Shown here piece after piece: positions 691 to 6,951 of a stretch of DNA of 6,951 nucleotides (positions within the stretch are counted from its first letter, which is position 1; each line of letters opens with the position of its first letter). The translations under genes and the position numbers were made by a program. The notes beneath the pieces were generated by a model. That model was given only the letters and a program-made list of their open reading frames with translations, was not told where the DNA came from and made no database searches. The stretch lies in the NCBI GenBank assembly GCA_964573185.1, contig CAZNIQ010000001.1:7861-14811 (forward strand). Direction: 5' to 3'. The stretch comes from Candidatus Woesearchaeota archaeon. Its GTDB lineage: Archaea > Nanobdellota > Nanobdellia > Nanobdellales > CAZNIQ01.

Positions 691-1490
691 AAGAATATTT
701 GCGATTTATAATTCCTTTAATTATAGCATTTATAATTTTAGCACCCTTTTTTGCTAACATAATAAAAGTAATAAAAAAAGCTGAAAATAATTATGAACAA
801 ACAGAAAATGCTACTATTAATATCATAGAAAATAAAAGCTTTGATATCTGGCAAGGAAAACCGAAAATTTGGTATTGTGATAGAGTTTTAATAATTACGA
901 AAAAGGATTATAGACCTCCGGAAAATGTTTTAGAAGAATTCTTTAATCCAAACGGAAATTTATCAAAATTAGGCGAAAAAATTAATCCGATACCAGTAGA
1001 ATATTCTTGCAGACCTGATGTTAGTAGATGTTTTTATGGAGGAAAAGTTTGCTTTAAGCATGCTGTTAAAGGTGATGGTTATATAATTGAGTGGGGAATG
1101 TATTTCTGTCATAATGGAACAGAAATAGAAATGGAATGTAAAGAACCAAAATATTGTTTAATTTACTTTACTGGAATAGGATGTCCACACTGTGCCTTAA
1201 CAGATCCATTCTTATTTTATGGAATTTTAGAGTGGAACGGTAAAAAATATGTTTTTAAAGAAAAAGAAAACACTATTGTAGTTGAATATGAAATTTATAA
1301 GGAAGGAAAATATAATGCAAAAGTTTTTGATAAATATTTAGAAATCTTCTTTAAGCCTGAAGAAAGATGGTGGTATGCCGGAGTACCACATATTTTCATA
1401 AATAAAAACAAGGTTATTGTTGGAGACATACCGATTTTAGAAAAATTAAATAAAGAAATTAGATTTTCTACTTGTTCATTTATTAAATAA
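687..1490 (+). CDS. Membrane-anchored, cysteine-rich thioredoxin-fold protein with a CPHC (CxxC) active-site motif
   Basis: There is an N-terminal hydrophobic anchor (FIIPLIIAFIILAPFFANII). LIYFTGIGCPHCALTDP (CPHC at nt 1182-1193) has the beta-strand, CxxC, helix pattern of thioredoxin/DsbA-like oxidoreductases. Eight further Cys precede it. The ATGA start/stop overlap with the upstream CcdA-like gene (687-690) suggests translational coupling. Confidence 0.65.
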   Translation: MKEYLRFIIPLIIAFIILAPFFANIIKVIKKAENNYEQTENATINIIENKSFDIWQGKPKIWYCDRVLIITKKDYRPPENVLEEFFNPNGNLSKLGEKINPIPVEYSCRPDVSRCFYGGKVCFKHAVKGDGYIIEWGMYFCHNGTEIEMECKEPKYCLIYFTGIGCPHCALTDPFLFYGILEWNGKKYVFKEKENTIVVEYEIYKEGKYNAKVFDKYLEIFFKPEERWWYAGVPHIFINKNKVIVGDIPILEKLNKEIRFSTCSFIK

Positions 1491-2354
1491 AGCAATTGTT
1501 TCAATTATTAATTTTGCAGCAAAGTTCTCACAGAATTCCTGAGGATATAGCTCAACAACGTCAAAGGCTATCAAATCCACAAAATCTTTTATTTCTTTTA
1601 TGATTTTAAAATAGTGGAAAGGTCTTATTCCAAAAGGTTCTAGCCAATGTCCACAGCCGGTATCAAAAACATCTAGATCTATTGAAATATAAACTTTTTT
1701 CTCTTTAATTTTTTCTCTTATTTTTTCAATAACATTATTTATATTATCCCAAATTTCATAAGGTGTAAAATATAGTATTTTATTTTCTTCTAAGAATTCT
1801 TTTTCTCTGAAAGACCAGTTTGAGATTCCAATGAAGATTACATTTTCTGGTTCAATTATTCTTTCCTTTATTAAATAATACATAAAGCTTTGATAATTTA
1901 CATAAGGGTCTGGCTCACAATCCGGGTGGGCATCGAAATATAATAAAGCAAAATCATGGTTTTCTTTCATTAATTTCAAAATCGGATACGTTATCGAATG
2001 GTCTCCACCAAGGAATACGTACTTCTTATCTTTTCTATAAATTTTCTTTATCTCTTGATAAATTCTTTCATATAATTCTTCTAAATTTTTAATATCTTCC
2101 AATTCCAAATCACCATAATCAAAAATTTCTTCATAATTAACTTTTCCAAATATGGGGTCAAAAATTCTATAGGAAGCATCTCTAATAGCTTCCGGACCTT
2201 CTAAATAATTTTTAACTTTAGATAAGCTTCCTAATTCAGAAGGTATCCCAACTATAATCCATTTGGCTTTTTCAAAGGATTCTGCTTGGGCGTGTGCGAA
2301 CATTAGATATCTAGGGCTTGCATATATAAACATTATATCTTGGATTTTCCCCAA
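1476..2354 (-). CDS. Ureohydrolase family protein (agmatinase/arginase-like)
   Basis: The family signature motifs occur in the correct order: FLGGDHSITYP, YFDAHPD and SIDLDVFD (Mn-ligand His/Asp clusters). The start is uncertain. The annotated ATG at 2354 overlaps the upstream gene by 44 nt, and in-frame ATGs at 2333 and 2303 are alternatives. The 3' end overlaps the convergent gene by 15 nt. Confidence 0.85.
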   Translation of the reverse strand: MGKIQDIMFIYASPRYLMFAHAQAESFEKAKWIIVGIPSELGSLSKVKNYLEGPEAIRDASYRIFDPIFGKVNYEEIFDYGDLELEDIKNLEELYERIYQEIKKIYRKDKKYVFLGGDHSITYPILKLMKENHDFALLYFDAHPDCEPDPYVNYQSFMYYLIKERIIEPENVIFIGISNWSFREKEFLEENKILYFTPYEIWDNINNVIEKIREKIKEKKVYISIDLDVFDTGCGHWLEPFGIRPFHYFKIIKEIKDFVDLIAFDVVELYPQEFCENFAAKLIIETIALFNK

Positions 2355-2898
2355 TTAGAAATACTTCTTTAAAAGTGGTTTTTAACTTTCTGTAATATAA
2401 TGCCTTAAATTTCTTTGGAACAACTATCTGAAAAATACCATTCTTCTTTAAATGTTCTCTAGCTCCCTCTATAAACTTAAAAACAATATCTTTTCCAGCA
2501 GAGTATGGTGGATTTGTTATTATTGTATCAAACTTTTTATCTTTTACAGGTTCATAAACATCTCCTTGTAATACTATGCAATCAACATTATTTAATTTAC
2601 AGTTTAATTTTGCCAATTCAACAGCTTTTGGATTTATATCTACCATATATACTTTGCAGGAAGGACATAATTTCTTAACAACAATTCCAATAACACCATA
2701 ACCACATCCCAAATCCAATACCTCCCAATTATCTAAAATTAACATGCTCTCAATAAGAAGCCTTGTTCCCTCATCTATTTTATCTTTTGAAAAGACTTCT
2801 GATGAAGTATAAAGCTTTATTTTTACTCCTCTTACAATATCTTCTATTAATTTTAATTCTAATGGTTTCTCAGGTTTATTTGTGAAATAATGAGTCAT
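2311..2898 (-). CDS. Class I SAM-dependent methyltransferase, RsmC/MJ0882-like small-domain family (NPPY type)
   Basis: SAM motif I is VLDLGCGYGVIG and catalytic motif IV is IITNPPY. The length (195 aa) and the N-terminal segment (VRGVKIKLYTSSEVFSKDKIDEGTRLL) resemble the archaeal MJ0882 / bacterial 16S rRNA m2G methyltransferase family as I recall it. It overlaps the upstream gene by 23 nt. Confidence 0.85.
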   Translation of the reverse strand: MTHYFTNKPEKPLELKLIEDIVRGVKIKLYTSSEVFSKDKIDEGTRLLIESMLILDNWEVLDLGCGYGVIGIVVKKLCPSCKVYMVDINPKAVELAKLNCKLNNVDCIVLQGDVYEPVKDKKFDTIITNPPYSAGKDIVFKFIEGAREHLKKNGIFQIVVPKKFKALYYRKLKTTFKEVFLIGENPRYNVYICKP

Positions 2899-3814
2899 AA
2901 TCTTTTATTAACTCTTGTAAGTCTATATTTCTTTTTTTCAAGTATTTTAGTAACATTAGGAAAGTGTGAATACCATCAGGAATATAATACCAGCTTTTAA
3001 ATCCAAATTTGTATCCATCAACATAAAACTTTGCCTTTTTAGATATAGCAACATTATGGGGATTATCTGTTACAATTATATCTACCCTTTGTGCTAGTAC
3101 TTTTAATAATTTTTCAGGAAAATCTGGAGTAACAACTATTAGTTCTCTTCTTTTGCATAATATTTCTACAAAAATATATGTTAATAATTTATAGTCTAGA
3201 AATCTTTCTTTGGTATAAATGCCAATCTGATCAGCATCTGGATCTAGAACTATGTAGAAATCTCCGTTAAAATTAGTTAAATTGGTTAACTCTACGGTTA
3301 ACTCATGGTTAAATTGGTTAACTTGATCGTTAACCCAGTTAACTTCGTTAAATAATTGGTTAAGTAACGGTTTTAAGTAAATACCCGTACCGCCGTTAGG
3401 GTCTACAGTTATAGAATAATCGAACTTCTGGAACTTACCTTTTAAGGCGTTAAGATAAATAGGCTTTATATCTAAAACCATAATATCCTTCTTTTCTTCA
3501 TTATAATAATCTGAAGGTTTTGGTTCGAAGTTTCTATAGTAATATTTGTAGATAAATTTGAATCCCGTGATATCTTTTGATAAACTTGATCCTGTAATCA
3601 TAAGTACAGGTATATTTTTTCTTATAGAAGCAAAGAAAGCCATTGGCGTTGAAATAATCTTAAAATCAATAACTGCCGGTTTTATATATTTTAAAATTTC
3701 CTTTTTTACTTCAATAGAAATATTTCTTGTATCAGTGCCTACTCCAATTATATCGTAATCGTTTAGAAAACCAACTATATTTTTTACTTCTTTTACACTC
3801 TTAATTACTAGCAT
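2876..3814 (-). CDS. alpha-D-phosphohexomutase (PGM/PMM)-like protein, short and with degenerate catalytic motifs
   Basis: MITGSSLSKDITGFKF aligns by eye to the phosphoserine loop MITASHNPxxYNGxKF. VDPNGGTG resembles the domain II Dxx(N)GxG motif. VLDPDADQIG resembles the metal loop DGDxDR. At 312 aa it lacks the C-terminal domain IV, and there is no GEESG or RxSGTEP motif. A TATA-like box lies 26 nt upstream of the ATG. Confidence 0.55.
   Translation of the reverse strand: MLVIKSVKEVKNIVGFLNDYDIIGVGTDTRNISIEVKKEILKYIKPAVIDFKIISTPMAFFASIRKNIPVLMITGSSLSKDITGFKFIYKYYYRNFEPKPSDYYNEEKKDIMVLDIKPIYLNALKGKFQKFDYSITVDPNGGTGIYLKPLLNQLFNEVNWVNDQVNQFNHELTVELTNLTNFNGDFYIVLDPDADQIGIYTKERFLDYKLLTYIFVEILCKRRELIVVTPDFPEKLLKVLAQRVDIIVTDNPHNVAISKKAKFYVDGYKFGFKSWYYIPDGIHTFLMLLKYLKKRNIDLQELIKDYDSLFHK
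3266..3363. repeat. Phased array of ten GTTAA motifs (five are full GTTAAC palindromes) inside the CDS
   Basis: GTTAA starts at 3266, 3276, 3285, 3297, 3308, 3317, 3329, 3338, 3347 and 3359. The spacings are 10, 9, 12, 11, 9, 12, 9, 9 and 12 nt, mean about 10.3. GTTAAC occurs at 3285, 3297, 3317, 3329 and 3338. The longer unit ATTGGTTAA recurs at 3281, 3313 and 3355. Confidence 0.8.
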
Positions 3815-3835: not shown

Positions 3836-3843
3836 AATATAAA
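3836..3843 (-). promoter_or_regulatory. TATA-like box (TTTATATT on the minus strand) for the 2876..3814 gene
   Basis: The minus strand reads CTGA-TTTTATATTTATTTGTTCCTTTAAGAAAAA-ATG. The box centre is about 26 nt upstream of the ATG at 3814, which is typical archaeal spacing for a leaderless mRNA. Confidence 0.5.
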
Positions 3844-3844
3844 A

Positions 3845-3894
3845 TCAGCGAAGCAGAGACGTCATCACCCTGCAGCTGTCCTCGGCTTCATCAC
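3845..3894 (-). ncRNA. Box C/D sRNA (2'-O-methylation guide)
   Basis: The minus strand reads GTGATGA (C, 3894-3888), AGCCGAGGACAG (12 nt), CTGC (degenerate D', 3875-3872), AGG, GTGATGA (C', 3868-3862), CGTCTCTGCTTCG (13 nt), CTGA (D, 3848-3845). It is a GC-rich island in an AT-rich intergenic region. Confidence 0.7.
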
Positions 3895-3898
3895 CATT

Positions 3899-3928: not shown

Positions 3929-5719
3929 ATGGAAAGAATCGCTATATTCAATTGGCAATGCCCAAATTGTGGTGGTTCCATTTCTAATGATCGTTTAGAA
4001 ATCTATGCTCCTTGTGAAAAATGTTTGGATGTTCCCATTGAAAAATTAAGGGAATTATTTAATAAATTACCTAGAGAAGAATATCTTAAAACAATTGTAA
4101 AACTTTTAGAGGAAAGAGGAAAGTTAAAAGATTATAAAAAATTATATGAATTGGAATTAAAGGTAAAGGAATTTGAGGAATTCTTTAAAAAAGCTGTCGG
4201 GTCTAAACCCTGGTCTGCTCAAAGAACCTGGTTTATAAGAGTCTTAAAAAAAGAATCCTTTTCTATAACAGCTCCAACAGGAATGGGAAAAACCACTTGG
4301 GGTTCGGTAATGGCTATATACTTAGCTCATAAGGAAGGAAAGAAATGCTATATTGTTTTACCTACAAGGATTTTGGTAAAACAGGTTTATGAAAGAATAC
4401 AGAAATTCCTAGAGAATTTAGGGATTCTAGATATAGAGGTTCTAGCTTATTTAAAAACTTCTCAAAAGTTAAAGAAGCAAATTCAGGAAGGAAAATTTGA
4501 TATTTTAATTACTTCTAACCAATTTTTAGCAAGGAATTTTGAAATCCTAAAAGACAAACATTTTGGTTTTGTATTTGTAGATGATGTTGATGCTTTACTA
4601 AAAGCTTCTAAAAATATTGACAGAACTTTACAATTAATTGGTTTCAAAGAAGAGCATATTAACTTGGCTTGGGAAATTATTAAATTGAAATTACAAATAG
4701 CTAAAACAAAAGATCAAAAGAAAATTGAAGAACTTGCTAACAAGATTAAAGAACTAAAAGATAAGTTAGAAGAAGAGAAAAAGAAGTTAGATTTAGGTGT
4801 TTTAGTTTTATCCTCCGCTACAGGAAAAGCTAGGGGATTGAGAGTTAGATTATACAGAGAACTATTGAATTTTGAGATTGGAGCTTCGAAGGTTTCTATA
4901 AGAAATATAATTGATGTTTATAAATATCCTGAAAAAGATATAAAAGAAGAAGTTTTGGAATTAGTCAAAAAGCTTGAGGATGGTATTTTGATATTTGTAA
5001 CTACAGATCAAGGAAAGGATTTTGCAGTAGAACTTGCGGAATATCTTAAAAATCATGGAATAAAAGCGGAAGCTGCGATCGCAGGGAAAACTGATGTTAT
5101 AGAGAAATTTGCAAAGGAAGAATTAAATGTTCTCGTTGGAGTAGCCCATTACTACGGTACTATAGTTAGAGGATTAGATCTTCCACATAGGGTAAAATAT
5201 GCTATATTCACTGGAGTTCCAAGATTTAGATTTAGTGCTAAGGTTGAAGAAACGGATCCTAGAAGAATATTGCTATTATTAAGAACGTTATTAGATTTCT
5301 TACCTGAAGAATATAAGGAAGAAGCTGAAAAAGTATTTAGAAAACTTGCAGATAATCTCAAAAAAACAAGTCCCGCAGCTATTACAGAAGTTAAAAAAGC
5401 TATTGAGGAAAATAGGAAATTAGAAGGTTTTCTAGGATATTTACAGGAATTAACGTTAAGAGCTAAGGAAATTTGTAAAAAAGCGTTATCTGATGAAAGA
5501 GTGATAAAGAAAATAGAGGAATATCCATATTTAGCTTTAGAAAGAAAAGACGATACTTTATATATCTTAATTCCTGATGTAAAAACTTATATACAGGCTT
5601 CTGGAAGAACCTCAAGATTATATGCAGGAGGCATTACAAAAGGTTTGTCAATAGTTTTGGTAGATAACGAAAAATTGTTAAAAGGCTTGATGCAAGCTCT
5701 AAAGTGGATAGAGTATTAA
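3929..5719 (+). CDS. rgy: Reverse gyrase, N-terminal zinc-finger plus helicase-like half only (split reverse gyrase)
   Basis: There is an N-terminal zinc ribbon CPNC-x14-CEKC. The SF2 helicase motifs are present: APTGMGKTT (nt 4271-4297), DDVD (4580-4591), SSATG, VRGLDLP and QASGRTSR. The ORF ends at aa 596 (...LKWIEY*). No topoisomerase IA domain follows, and the next gene is convergent and overlaps the stop. Confidence 0.9.
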   Translation: MERIAIFNWQCPNCGGSISNDRLEIYAPCEKCLDVPIEKLRELFNKLPREEYLKTIVKLLEERGKLKDYKKLYELELKVKEFEEFFKKAVGSKPWSAQRTWFIRVLKKESFSITAPTGMGKTTWGSVMAIYLAHKEGKKCYIVLPTRILVKQVYERIQKFLENLGILDIEVLAYLKTSQKLKKQIQEGKFDILITSNQFLARNFEILKDKHFGFVFVDDVDALLKASKNIDRTLQLIGFKEEHINLAWEIIKLKLQIAKTKDQKKIEELANKIKELKDKLEEEKKKLDLGVLVLSSATGKARGLRVRLYRELLNFEIGASKVSIRNIIDVYKYPEKDIKEEVLELVKKLEDGILIFVTTDQGKDFAVELAEYLKNHGIKAEAAIAGKTDVIEKFAKEELNVLVGVAHYYGTIVRGLDLPHRVKYAIFTGVPRFRFSAKVEETDPRRILLLLRTLLDFLPEEYKEEAEKVFRKLADNLKKTSPAAITEVKKAIEENRKLEGFLGYLQELTLRAKEICKKALSDERVIKKIEEYPYLALERKDDTLYILIPDVKTYIQASGRTSRLYAGGITKGLSIVLVDNEKLLKGLMQALKWIEY

Positions 5720-6186
5720 AGTTTTTCTAAATAAAAGATTGCATAAAAATTTCTCCCTTTTCTTTTAATAAAAACATCTATAACTGCAAAATACTTAATA
5801 ATTTCGTTAACAAAATCTTGAGGATATATTCTTAATTTAGATTTCATTTCAGGAAATCCGAAGAGTTCGAATTCTATATAAGCTTTTCCACCCGGCTTTA
5901 AAACGTTGTATAAAGCGTTTAAGAACTGCTTATAGTTTTTATCTAAATTTTCAACATATACTAAATCCACTTTGTTTATAAAATTCTTGTACATATCTAG
6001 AAAAGATCCTTTAACATATACTTTATTTCCAAAAGTTCCAGCTTTTTTATCATTTATAAAATAGAATTTCTTATCAGTATATTTATTTGCAAACCTTTCT
6101 AATTTAAAACCATATATATCTAAAATTATTTTTGCTTCAGAGAGGTCATGAGTCATCATTTTCTCAGCTAAGGGTGAGTTCCTCAT
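5716..6186 (-). CDS. Small class I methyltransferase-fold-like protein with an atypical motif I (function uncertain)
   Basis: The order of motifs resembles a Rossmann methyltransferase: IILDIYGFK (degenerate GxGxG), YFIND (acidic end of beta2), VDLVYVENL and NVLKPGGKAYI. It shares a TTAA stop/stop overlap with the convergent reverse gyrase gene (5716-5719). Its first 16 codons coincide with a C/D-box-like module, so the real start could be ATG 6186, 6159 or 6156. Confidence 0.45.
   Translation of the reverse strand: MRNSPLAEKMMTHDLSEAKIILDIYGFKLERFANKYTDKKFYFINDKKAGTFGNKVYVKGSFLDMYKNFINKVDLVYVENLDKNYKQFLNALYNVLKPGGKAYIEFELFGFPEMKSKLRIYPQDFVNEIIKYFAVIDVFIKRKGRNFYAIFYLEKL
6137..6186 (-). ncRNA. 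Box C/D sRNA-like module overlapping the 5' end of CDS 5716..6186
   Basis: The minus strand reads ATGAGGA (C-like with one mismatch, 6186-6180), ACTCACCCTTAG (12 nt), CTGA (D', 6167-6164), GAAA, ATGATGA (C', 6159-6153), CTCATGACCTCT (12 nt), CTGA (D, 6140-6137). Both spacers are exactly 12 nt. The U5-to-G change in the C box would replace the U-U pair with a G-U pair. Confidence 0.5.
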
Positions 6187-6216
6187 TTAAAATTAAGATT
6201 AGTTTATAGATTTTTA
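6186..6216. promoter_or_regulatory. AT-rich spacer with putative back-to-back TATA-like elements
   Basis: On the plus strand, TTTAAAAT (6186-6193) is centred about 26 nt before the C box at 6217. On the minus strand, TTAAAAAT (6216-6209) is centred about 26 nt before position 6186, which is the ATG and C-like box. A further TTTATAGA/TCTATAAA element lies at 6203-6210. Confidence 0.4.
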
Positions 6217-6264
6217 ATGATGAGGCGTTTCCACTCTGATTATGATGATAGGTCCCATTGCTGA
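6217..6264 (+). ncRNA. Box C/D sRNA (canonical double-guide architecture)
   Basis: The plus strand reads ATGATGA (C, 6217-6223), GGCGTTTCCACT (12 nt), CTGA (D', 6236-6239), TT, ATGATGA (C', 6242-6248), TAGGTCCCATTG (12 nt), CTGA (D, 6261-6264). All four boxes match the consensus and both spacers are 12 nt. It lies in an intergenic GC-rich island. Confidence 0.85.
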
Positions 6265-6312
6265 TCAGCCCCGTGACGCTTCATCATTTTCAGCAGTACA
6301 GATCCTCATCAC
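6265..6312 (-). ncRNA. Box C/D sRNA embedded in the 3' end of CDS 6265..>6951
   Basis: The minus strand reads GTGATGA (C, 6312-6306), GGATCTGTACTG (12 nt), CTGA (D', 6293-6290), AA, ATGATGA (C', 6287-6281), AGCGTCACGGGG (12 nt), CTGA (D, 6268-6265). All boxes match the consensus and both spacers are 12 nt. Confidence 0.75.
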
Positions 6313-6951
6313 TTCTTTTAATGTATAAATGTTCTTTTTAAAATCACAAGACCTTAAATATTCAAAACCTGTAATATCTATAAATGCAATTTTTCCTTTT
6401 ATTTCTCTTAAAATGATTAAAAGCTCATTCAAATCTAAAAGAAACGCATAATTATTATATCTGTTGCAAACAAAATCTCTCTTAAGTATATCCAAATCTA
6501 TAGACACATATAGTTCGTTTGGAAGTTCTTTTAAAAAATTAATAACGTTTCCCCAATTACTTCTATCTTTTCTTATCAAAATATATTTATCAAAAGAATT
6601 CGTTTCAGGTTTAAGAAAGCCAACATAGAACATTTCTTTTACATTTGCCAATTTTTTAATAAATCTTGCAAAGCTTCCAGTGTTTATCCCTTTCATTAAA
6701 GAGTAATCATCTGGATGTTGATCTATATGTAAATAGTACTTCGGTTTTATTTTGATTAAAATAGCTAGAGTAATGAAATGTTTTTTATCTGAACCATAAA
6801 TGTAAAAATTATCTTCAGGTATTATTTTTGATATTTCGAGAATTTCATTTTCTGTATAATAAGGTTTGCTTGGAAGCTTAAGATCTACAATCTTATCAAA
6901 GTTAAAGTACTTCTTTAATTCCTCCGTTGCTTTATCTATATTGATTAACGC
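6265..6951 (-). CDS. Divergent ureohydrolase-fold paralog (5' partial, continues off the right edge)
   Basis: My translation of the minus strand shows the frame of ORF 6265..6696 stays open from 6696 up to nt 6951 (ALINIDKATEELKKYFNFDKIVDL...FYIYGSDKKHFITLAIL...YYLHIDQHPDDYSL-MKGINTG...). The motifs align with the 1476..2354 protein: GSDKKHFIT versus GGDHSIT, HIDQHPD versus FDAHPD, VSIDLDILKRD versus ISIDLDVFD, and IAFIDITGFEY versus IAFDVVELYP. Confidence 0.6.
   Translation of the reverse strand, partial: ALINIDKATEELKKYFNFDKIVDLKLPSKPYYTENEILEISKIIPEDNFYIYGSDKKHFITLAILIKIKPKYYLHIDQHPDDYSLMKGINTGSFARFIKKLANVKEMFYVGFLKPETNSFDKYILIRKDRSNWGNVINFLKELPNELYVSIDLDILKRDFVCNRYNNYAFLLDLNELLIILREIKGKIAFIDITGFEYLRSCDFKKNIYTLKEVMRICTAENDEASRG

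Follow-up and report, generated by a model that had tools for sequence, protein, structure and literature searches.

Arrays of short DNA repeats and local clusters of short palindromes are known from several systems. Among the iteron and type II centromere arrays, R1 parC consists of ten 11-bp repeats. The GATC clusters at E. coli oriC are bound by SeqA. Rickettsia palindromic elements are dispersed in multiple copies, are inserted in-frame into genes and add length to them. The iterons of lambda ori lie inside gene O. In Rhizobium etli p42d, oriV is located inside repC and silent mutations abolish its function (PMC3155836). Here we describe an array of ten TTAAC cores within 98 bp of a protein-coding gene. 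The array lies in a 6951-bp stretch of DNA (the window) from Candidatus Woesearchaeota archaeon (GenBank assembly GCA_964573185.1, contig CAZNIQ010000001.1, positions 7,861–14,811, forward strand). The host gene encodes a degenerate relative of phosphoglucomutase/phosphomannomutase (PGM/PMM), and the word is written into its codons in two reading phases. The finding is real, statistically robust and unexplained by selection on the protein.

The array resembles iteron and type II centromere arrays in having about ten short repeats in the same orientation, approximately one per helical turn, with conserved cores, variable spacers and lineage-specific flanks. It differs from them in lying inside a housekeeping-type coding sequence, translated in two frames. 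Its core measures 5–6 bp, there is no adjacent rep or par gene, the host is archaeal, and protein binding is a prediction. With oriV/repC of p42d and lambda ori the array shares a DNA element that uses the same codons as a protein, synonymous positions that carry DNA information, and a tolerant protein region. However, in those systems the host gene encodes the initiator, whereas here it is a degenerate mutase paralog with no known link to DNA. As in the GATC clusters of E. coli oriC, a short palindrome that is uncommon in the background is piled up locally at near-helical spacing; in contrast, the present array is only half palindromic and intragenic, and no cognate methylase was found. Like a Rickettsia palindromic element, it represents about 100 bp of palindrome-rich DNA translated within a protein of a reduced genome, but it replaces homologous residues and no other copy was found.

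Organization of the array and codon choice

The ten GTTAA words start on the plus strand at the left-hand unit coordinates of Table 1 and all have one orientation, reading TTAAC on the coding (minus) strand. Steps between successive plus-strand starts are 10, 9, 12, 11, 9, 12, 9, 9 and 12 bp, with a mean of 10.33 bp. Units 3, 4, 5, 7 and 8 are full GTTAAC palindromes, and outside the array the window contains one more GTTAAC, at position 5806. In minus-strand order the units encode LN, FN, VN, VN, VN, FN, LT, LT, LT and FN, so that 7 of 10 are read as xTT-AAC and 3 of 10 as TTA-ACx. A previous interpretation of this DNA (the sequence-only reading) had listed ten GTTAA, five GTTAAC, a mean spacing of ~10.3 bp and a 7 + 3 split over two phases. 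All of these were recovered, the split exactly, in the minus-strand open reading frame (ORF) at 2876–3814. The array is present in the window and in an ENA contig (L003), and the orthologous array is present in an NCBI metagenome-assembled genome and a Logan assembly (L001 and L002). Its occurrence in several independent assemblies rules out an artefact of assembly.

Chance comes nowhere near accounting for the clustering. GTTAAC occurs six times in the whole window against 1.27±1.10 in dinucleotide shuffles. At the background rate, the probability of five GTTAAC within 59 bp is about 2e-12 per window, and that of ten TTAAC within 98 bp is about 3e-15 per window. In about 57 kb of sequence from the two genomes that carry the gene, no other 5-mer forms a cluster nearly as strong as that of TTAAC. 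The strong local enrichment of GTTAAC claimed from the letters alone is thus borne out.

Codon choice was tested by fixing the 40-residue peptide and recoding it 200,000 times using local codon usage. The recodings contain 3.0±1.3 TTAAC (maximum 9) against 10 observed, and 0 of 200,000 reach 10; the recoded mean for GTTAAC is 0.73, compared with 5 in the gene itself (P = 4e-5). Outside the array, AAC accounts for 30% of Asn codons and for 21–25% of those after NTT, but it is used in 7/7 hydrophobic-Asn units of the array. Codon-pair or context bias is rejected as the cause, NTT-AAC being the minority form outside the arrays (5/27 and 4/16, 9/43 in total). The rare Leu codon CTT (9% in the background) is used in unit 1, the rare Thr codon ACC (8–10%) in units 7 and 8, and the rare Glu codon GAG (20–22%) provides the 5' G of units 7 and 8. 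These rare codons fall exactly where the motif gets completed. In 191 other proteins of the family, a 40-residue window holds at most 6 such dipeptides, compared with 10 in the host protein and 9 in its ortholog. Full-length PGM homologs align across the array region and lack the pattern. The amino-acid sequence does not by itself give rise to the array. The view put forward earlier, that the cause lies at the nucleic-acid level rather than in amino-acid selection, is supported by the recoding, by these 191 pattern-free relatives and by a five-fold drop of synonymous divergence (dS) described below.

Conservation of the cores in the ortholog

A single ortholog was found in about 5.8 billion proteins. 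This protein (P0002) is 74% identical to the host protein and comes from the NCBI metagenome-assembled genome GCA_054017035.1 (locus L001). No further orthologs were found in GTDB genome contigs or JGI metagenome contigs, and an exhaustive HMMER search of 1.84 billion representatives returned one ortholog only, with canonical PGMs next. In the ortholog, 9 of 10 units occupy identical positions, with zero substitutions across 45 core bases. The differences, including a radical change of QVNQ to KPGE, are confined to spacers. Loss of unit 5 in the ortholog leaves a 21-nt gap and preserves the phase. The alignment through the array is gap-free, without indels and without any difference in copy number or register, at a dS of about 1.5. 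Comparison with an ortholog had been proposed as a check on whether the DNA motif or the amino-acid sequence is kept, and it is the DNA motif itself that proved to be conserved.

The synonymous constraint is local. Within the array dS is 0.31, as against 1.57 for the remainder of the gene and 1.39 for the neighboring methyltransferase gene. Nonsynonymous divergence (dN) is 0.143 in the array and 0.184 in the rest of the gene, which gives a dN/dS of 0.46 in the array and about 0.12 elsewhere in the host gene. Where Asn is conserved, both genomes use AAC at 6/6 sites within the array and at 0/15 outside it (exact P about 2e-5, hand-calculated). Translational-accuracy selection for AAC at conserved Asn is rejected by the same 0/15. 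In 20-codon windows, codon identity at conserved residues is 0.95 in the array and 0.25–0.8 elsewhere, and the probability of all 15 motif codons staying identical is 2e-4 at residue-specific background rates. The non-palindromic units (TTTAAC and CTTAAC) are kept as strictly as the GTTAAC units, suggesting that selection acts on TTAAC rather than on GTTAAC alone. A recent recombination tract was also considered and rejected. It cannot explain the pattern because nonsynonymous differences are interspersed between the cores, with dN about equal to that of the rest of the gene. The cores arise from a non-random choice of codons in two frames and are invariant at synonymous positions across saturated divergence, and the spacers change freely. 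Silent positions keep the word intact, so something probably reads the DNA or the RNA at the array.

Spacing and repeat copies

The phase coherence of the units is high, with a resultant R of 0.88 at 10.35 bp (0.87 in the ortholog). The near-helical period is largely forced because the units step by 3 or 4 codons. When these steps are put in random order, R averages ~0.79, and 9% of the permutations reach the observed value (P = 0.09).

The coding-strand 15-mer GTTAACCAATTTAAC occurs twice in the window, 32 nt apart, read once as V-N-Q-F-N and once as (E)-L-T-N-L-T. In the ortholog a different 14-mer, TTAACGAAGTTAAC, is duplicated across both frames (F-N-E-V-N and L-T-K-L-T). The flanks are also lineage-specific: TTAAC-CAA/CAT appears four times in the window and TTAAC-GAA/GAT six times in the ortholog. 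Flanks and cross-frame copies fit either short-patch conversion within the array or an extended site that has co-evolved with its reader, and without an outgroup the changes are unpolarised. The spacers are mostly unlike each other (GAAG, TGGG, GATCAAG, CATGAG, CGTAGAG and others). Tandem Repeats Finder reports weak fragments with scores of 34–42 and periods of 9 and 12 nt.

An IMG/VR search for similar arrays returned mostly in-frame 9-/12-bp coding tandem repeats together with a few 11-bp iteron-like arrays, none of them related to the array locus. The coding tandem repeats, of the slippage type, likewise repeat a short word within an ORF in 9- and 12-nt steps, but they are near-perfect, have a fixed period and stay in one frame. 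The array described here has heterogeneous spacers, uses two frames (10- and 11-nt steps) and keeps a constant length between orthologs. Some phage contigs carry (C)TTAAC direct-repeat arrays with 11-bp spacing (L046, about 4401–4510, also L033; and L034, about 1099–1200, minus strand). These lie in DNA without ORFs of at least 40 aa and resemble ordinary iteron-type arrays.

The host protein

The host ORF of 312 aa is shorter than its relatives of 420–455 aa and ends after domain III. In Pfam, only PF02878 (domain I) scores above threshold, and an archaeal GlmM model is matched weakly. The AlphaFold2 (AF2) model has a predicted local distance difference test score (pLDDT) of 90. In Foldseek comparison with solved PMM/PGMs, domains I–III match with E = 3.5e-20 and a TM score of 0.78 to 2fkm/1k35 (P. 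aeruginosa PMM/PGM). The protein therefore shares with alpha-D-phosphohexomutases (PGM/PMM/GlmM) the alpha/beta fold of domains I–III and the three Asp residues of the metal loop, which reads DPDADQ against DxDxDR, with Arg replaced by Gln. It differs from them in having no domain IV (phosphate-binding), in the loss of the sugar-binding loop, and in the catalytic (phosphoserine) loop, where TGSSLS stands in place of TASHNP and the family pattern is T(A/G)SHNP; the Ser is kept and HNP is gone. With a dN/dS of about 0.12 outside the array, the host gene is functional and under purifying selection.

The array encodes residues about 151–183, in the strand and loop region of domain II. In the AF2 model this segment spans the end of a helix, a strand, a loop (residues 171–180, pLDDT 55) and a short helix. 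No single periodic element extends across the array, and amphipathic-helix or coiled-coil periodicity was rejected for this reason. The hydrophobic residues L151, F155, V158, V161, F168 and L179 come from the ancestral PGM fold, and Asn162 occurs throughout the family. The segment replaces homologous residues, and the region is shorter than in relatives.

A canonical four-domain PGM/PMM is encoded directly upstream of the TIM gene at L004 5681–6946 (GCA_054017035.1) and at L005 8703–9974 (ERZ27262635), with enzymes of Pyrobaculum and Thermoproteus as best named relatives (about 40% identity). L005 comes from the metagenome assembly that holds the near-identical contig of the window, and its assignment to the same organism is inferred. 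With a canonical full-length PGM in both source assemblies, the array gene is an extra, truncated and divergent paralog.

Overlapping genes, RNA structure and palindrome census

Apart from the host gene, no ORF of at least 20 aa extends across the array; on the plus strand, an ORF of 30 aa at 3178–3270 overlaps only the unit at 3266. The other frames are closed because the motif contains TAA. An overlapping gene was rejected as the source of constraint. The RNA folding z-score in the window is −2.6 for the sense strand and −3.1 for the antisense strand, arising from the self-complementary copies, whereas in the ortholog it is −0.76, no better than shuffles, and the pairings differ. An Rfam scan of the array matched no family. 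Conserved RNA structure and a known RNA family were rejected on these grounds. The guides of the C/D box small RNA (sRNA) upstream of the host gene are GC-rich and have no complementarity to the array, and a role of the array as guide target was likewise rejected.

Each array contains five GTTAAC. Four are shared, unit 5 is private to the window and unit 9 to the ortholog. With the arrays masked, GTTAAC was counted in L001 plus L004 and in L003 plus L005 (53 kb, by estimate about 10% of each genome). There are 3 observed against 10.8 expected (uncorrected P about 0.006), with 0 versus 5.4 in the ortholog genome and 3 versus 5.3 in that of the window. The depletion does not survive correction over 64 palindromes. 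Of the genome-wide behavior that the sequence-only reading had singled out for counting, scarcity outside the arrays is suggestive, and clustering elsewhere did not appear in about 57 kb, with at most 3 TTAAC per 100 bp. In the same 53 kb, the most under-represented 6-bp palindrome is ATGCAT (1 observed, 15.8 expected), which may point to a restriction-modification system or to another constraint on that word.

Interpretation

We put at about 0.4 the probability that these units form an array of recognition sites, probably read in DNA, which is overlaid on the codons and kept by purifying selection. Selection would then act on the DNA word itself, through a predicted sequence-specific factor, and TTAAC cores would be extended to GTTAAC where the protein allows. 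The putative factor would bind the repeats cooperatively on roughly one face of the duplex, as in iteron, centromere and operator arrays. The protein would accommodate the motif with hydrophobic-Asn and Leu-Thr dipeptides where relatives have other residues. The array might serve in segregation, replication or chromatin nucleation, or it might regulate the unit made up of the sRNA, the PGM-like gene and the methyltransferase gene. We prefer DNA over RNA because rare codons complete the palindrome and because GTTAAC is scarce elsewhere. It is doubtful, if still worth proposing, that the array is in particular a chromosomal cis-element of a Nanoarchaeota-like symbiont (a centromere, a replication or chromatin-nucleation site, or an operator) written into codons, with the protein evolving to fit in two frames.

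Several observations weigh against a recognition-site array in DNA. Neither locus has near it a candidate binding protein or a partition or replication gene (Rep, ParR/ParB, SegB and the like). No second TTAAC array occurs in about 57 kb of both genomes, with a maximum of 3 TTAAC per 100 bp (~10% of each genome, assuming roughly 0.5 Mb). With 5 bp, the core is small for a site that a protein recognizes specifically in DNA. The units share one orientation, that of the sense strand, an arrangement explained equally well by a reader of RNA. Two genomes carry the gene, and every comparative statistic is a single pairwise comparison. The ~10.3-bp period is real and fits binding to one face, yet it is no independent evidence for a DNA-face constraint. 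The spacing of one helical turn noted earlier stands as a period; as a sign of such constraint it does not, given the codon steps and the permutation result. The lineage-specific flanks and the 14–15-nt cross-frame copies could reflect intra-array conversion rather than selection. Of the explanations that the sequence-only reading had offered, a protein-binding array fits best, but neither its binding factor nor a second array was found, and literature searches for archaeal GTTAAC/TTAAC-binding factors yielded nothing relevant.

The flanks (CAA/CAT versus GAA/GAT) and the copies duplicated across frames also suit a functionless, self-perpetuating microrepeat, in which slippage or template switching would have multiplied an 8–15-nt TTAAC unit in a structurally permissive loop of a decaying paralog, and short-patch conversion would repair the cores. 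Use in two frames would lock such a motif, since a mutation synonymous in one of them gives a missense codon or a stop in the other. The weak 9- and 12-nt periodicities and the relaxed protein constraint in the array, seen in dN/dS and in the low pLDDT of the loop, are in line with it. We nevertheless regard it as unlikely. Active slippage should shift the register, and the two lineages show no indel or copy-number difference. Conversion that rescues every 5-bp core in two lineages should also homogenise the spacers, which are heterogeneous. The rare G-ending codons that complete GTTAAC, and the scarcity of GTTAAC elsewhere, would be left unexplained. Slippage duplication, also suggested earlier, may account for the origin of the array but does not explain its persistence, with copy number and register unchanged at saturated dS and the units in two frames. 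Somewhat less likely still is a linear motif in RNA, with ten UUAAC on the mRNA as a platform for an oligomeric RNA-binding protein or acting on the ribosome, controlling the PGM-like and methyltransferase genes. All ten cores are sense-oriented, the synonymous constraint is equally compatible with selection on the transcript, and the host gene overlaps the conserved methyltransferase gene, with which it is probably co-transcribed. Against such a role, neither a conserved secondary structure nor a matching Rfam family was found for the array, we know of no archaeal RNA-binding protein with this specificity, and the preference for a palindrome-making 5' G and the scarcity of GTTAAC in DNA have no obvious RNA rationale.

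GTTAAC is an HpaI-type site, and the array might be a target cluster of a restriction-modification system or orphan methylase, serving as epigenetic switch or sequestration site. The five palindromes per genome (four shared, one private), their scarcity outside the arrays, above all in the ortholog genome, and the rare G-ending codons that give the 5' G in second-phase units would agree with this. However, half of the units are TTTAAC or CTTAAC and equally conserved, the depletion fails correction, and the shortage of ATGCAT is much greater. In the sampled loci we saw no restriction-modification genes. The adjacent methyltransferase of 195 aa has an MTS/RsmC catalytic domain (E of 2e-45 for the MTS model and of about 1e-5 for type II DNA methylase models) and is not long enough to hold a target-recognition domain as well, and it was rejected as a GTTAAC DNA methylase. 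The methylation cluster, earlier listed among the candidates, comes out weak, and we judge it improbable. Lowest of all we rate an effect of protein or translation, in which the accurate codon AAC would be chosen wherever Asn matters for the structure, and the spacing would follow from hydrophobic-polar periodicity. The hydrophobic positions of the PGM fold and Asn162 do explain the anchoring and the 3–4-residue spacing. This explanation is largely refuted by the recoding, by the conserved Asn residues elsewhere in both genes, none of the 15 being AAC in both genomes, and by the minority status of NTT-AAC outside the array. Furthermore, the region is not a single amphipathic helix, and the rare CTT, ACC and GAG choices, the Leu-Thr units of the second frame and the absence of the dipeptides from relatives would have no explanation.

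Features of the locus and its neighborhood

The coordinates are summarized in Table 1. Between the two loci, the upstream C/D sRNA, the PGM-like gene and the overlapping MTS-type methyltransferase gene are conserved and nothing else, so that the methyltransferase is the only conserved protein-coding neighbor at the ortholog locus. The C/D sRNA of the ortholog locus (L001 9917–9972, plus strand) lies at the same distance from the gene and has essentially the same guides. Other neighbors in the window are a reverse gyrase half and an agmatinase-like gene; at the ortholog locus they are Lon_C-like and ABCE1 genes.

Table 1. Positions of the array, its units and the flanking genes in the window
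Feature	Position	Strand	Description
Array	3266..3363	-	ten TTAAC cores on the coding strand
Unit 1	3359..3363	-	CTT-AAC (Leu-Asn); rare Leu codon CTT; same in ortholog
Unit 2	3347..3351	-	TTT-AAC (Phe-Asn); same in ortholog
Unit 3	3338..3343	-	GTT-AAC (Val-Asn), palindrome GTTAAC; same in ortholog
Unit 4	3329..3334	-	GTT-AAC (Val-Asn162), palindrome; same in ortholog; Asn162 is the one Asn inherited from the PGM family
Unit 5	3317..3322	-	GTT-AAC (Val-Asn), palindrome; sole unit absent from ortholog (CCT-GGA, Pro-Gly)
Unit 6	3308..3312	-	TTT-AAC (Phe168-Asn); same in ortholog
Unit 7	3297..3302	-	second phase, (GAG)-TTA-ACC (Glu-Leu-Thr); rare GAG and ACC complete GTTAACC; same in ortholog
Unit 8	3285..3290	-	second phase, (GAG)-TTA-ACC, palindrome; in ortholog core same, flank C to G
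Unit 9	3276..3280	-	second phase, (AAT)-TTA-ACT; in ortholog AAT to AAG (Asn to Lys), so TTTAAC becomes GTTAAC
Unit 10	3266..3270	-	first phase again, TTT-AAC (Phe-Asn); same in ortholog
Exact 15-mer GTTAAATTGGTTAAC, copy 1	3276..3290	+	coding-strand reading E-L-T-N-L-T
Exact 15-mer GTTAAATTGGTTAAC, copy 2	3308..3322	+	other frame, V-N-Q-F-N; 32 nt from copy 1
Host gene	2876..3814	-	312-aa, three-domain degenerate phosphoglucomutase/phosphomannomutase paralog
Methyltransferase gene	2311..2898	-	MTS-type (RsmC/MJ0882-like); downstream, overlaps host gene
C/D box sRNA	3843..3898	-	28 nt upstream of host gene; Rfam sR45, 42.3 bits (gathering score 40)

Two gene overlaps occur on the minus strand, of 23 nt between the PGM-like and methyltransferase genes (2876–2898) and of 44 nt between the methyltransferase and agmatinase-like genes (2311–2354). 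The former is conserved in the ortholog (20 nt). Such overlaps are typical of a very compact genome. The plus-strand ORF at 3929–5719 encodes only the N-terminal half of reverse gyrase (zinc finger and helicase-like part, TIGR01054 4–557 of 1172), and the gene after it is on the opposite strand. The ORF represents a split reverse gyrase, a type known from Nanoarchaeum equitans. A GC content of 28–30%, C/D box sRNAs and the N-terminal reverse gyrase half suggest that the source is a Nanoarchaeota-like hyperthermophile. Two further C/D-box-like matches, at 6214–6265 (plus strand, 26.6 bits) and 6262–6316 (minus strand, 29.8 bits), fall below Rfam gathering scores and lie in or beside the intergenic gap between ORFs 5716–6186 and 6265–6696. 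The window and the ENA contig L003 differ at 22 positions, clustered at 263–316 and 1542–1677; a 136-bp stretch of the agmatinase-like gene contains ten of them, the PGM-like gene none. The clustered differences may be strain-level recombination patches.

Significance

To our knowledge, cis-acting chromosomal elements of DPANN archaea (origins, segregation sites and operators) are undescribed, and almost nothing is known about them. If the array is a cis-element, it would be the first such element defined in these archaea and an unusually clear case of a gene segment in which DNA evolved first and protein second. If instead it is a neutral microrepeat maintained by conversion, it would be a case of unusually short-patch concerted evolution. 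The array offers a concrete 100-bp probe for finding the factor that reads the motif. It further provides a clean case of dual coding in nature, in which one word in two frames forces hydrophobic-Asn and Leu-Thr dipeptides onto an enzyme fold, and it bears on how far information other than that for protein shapes the proteins of very compact genomes.

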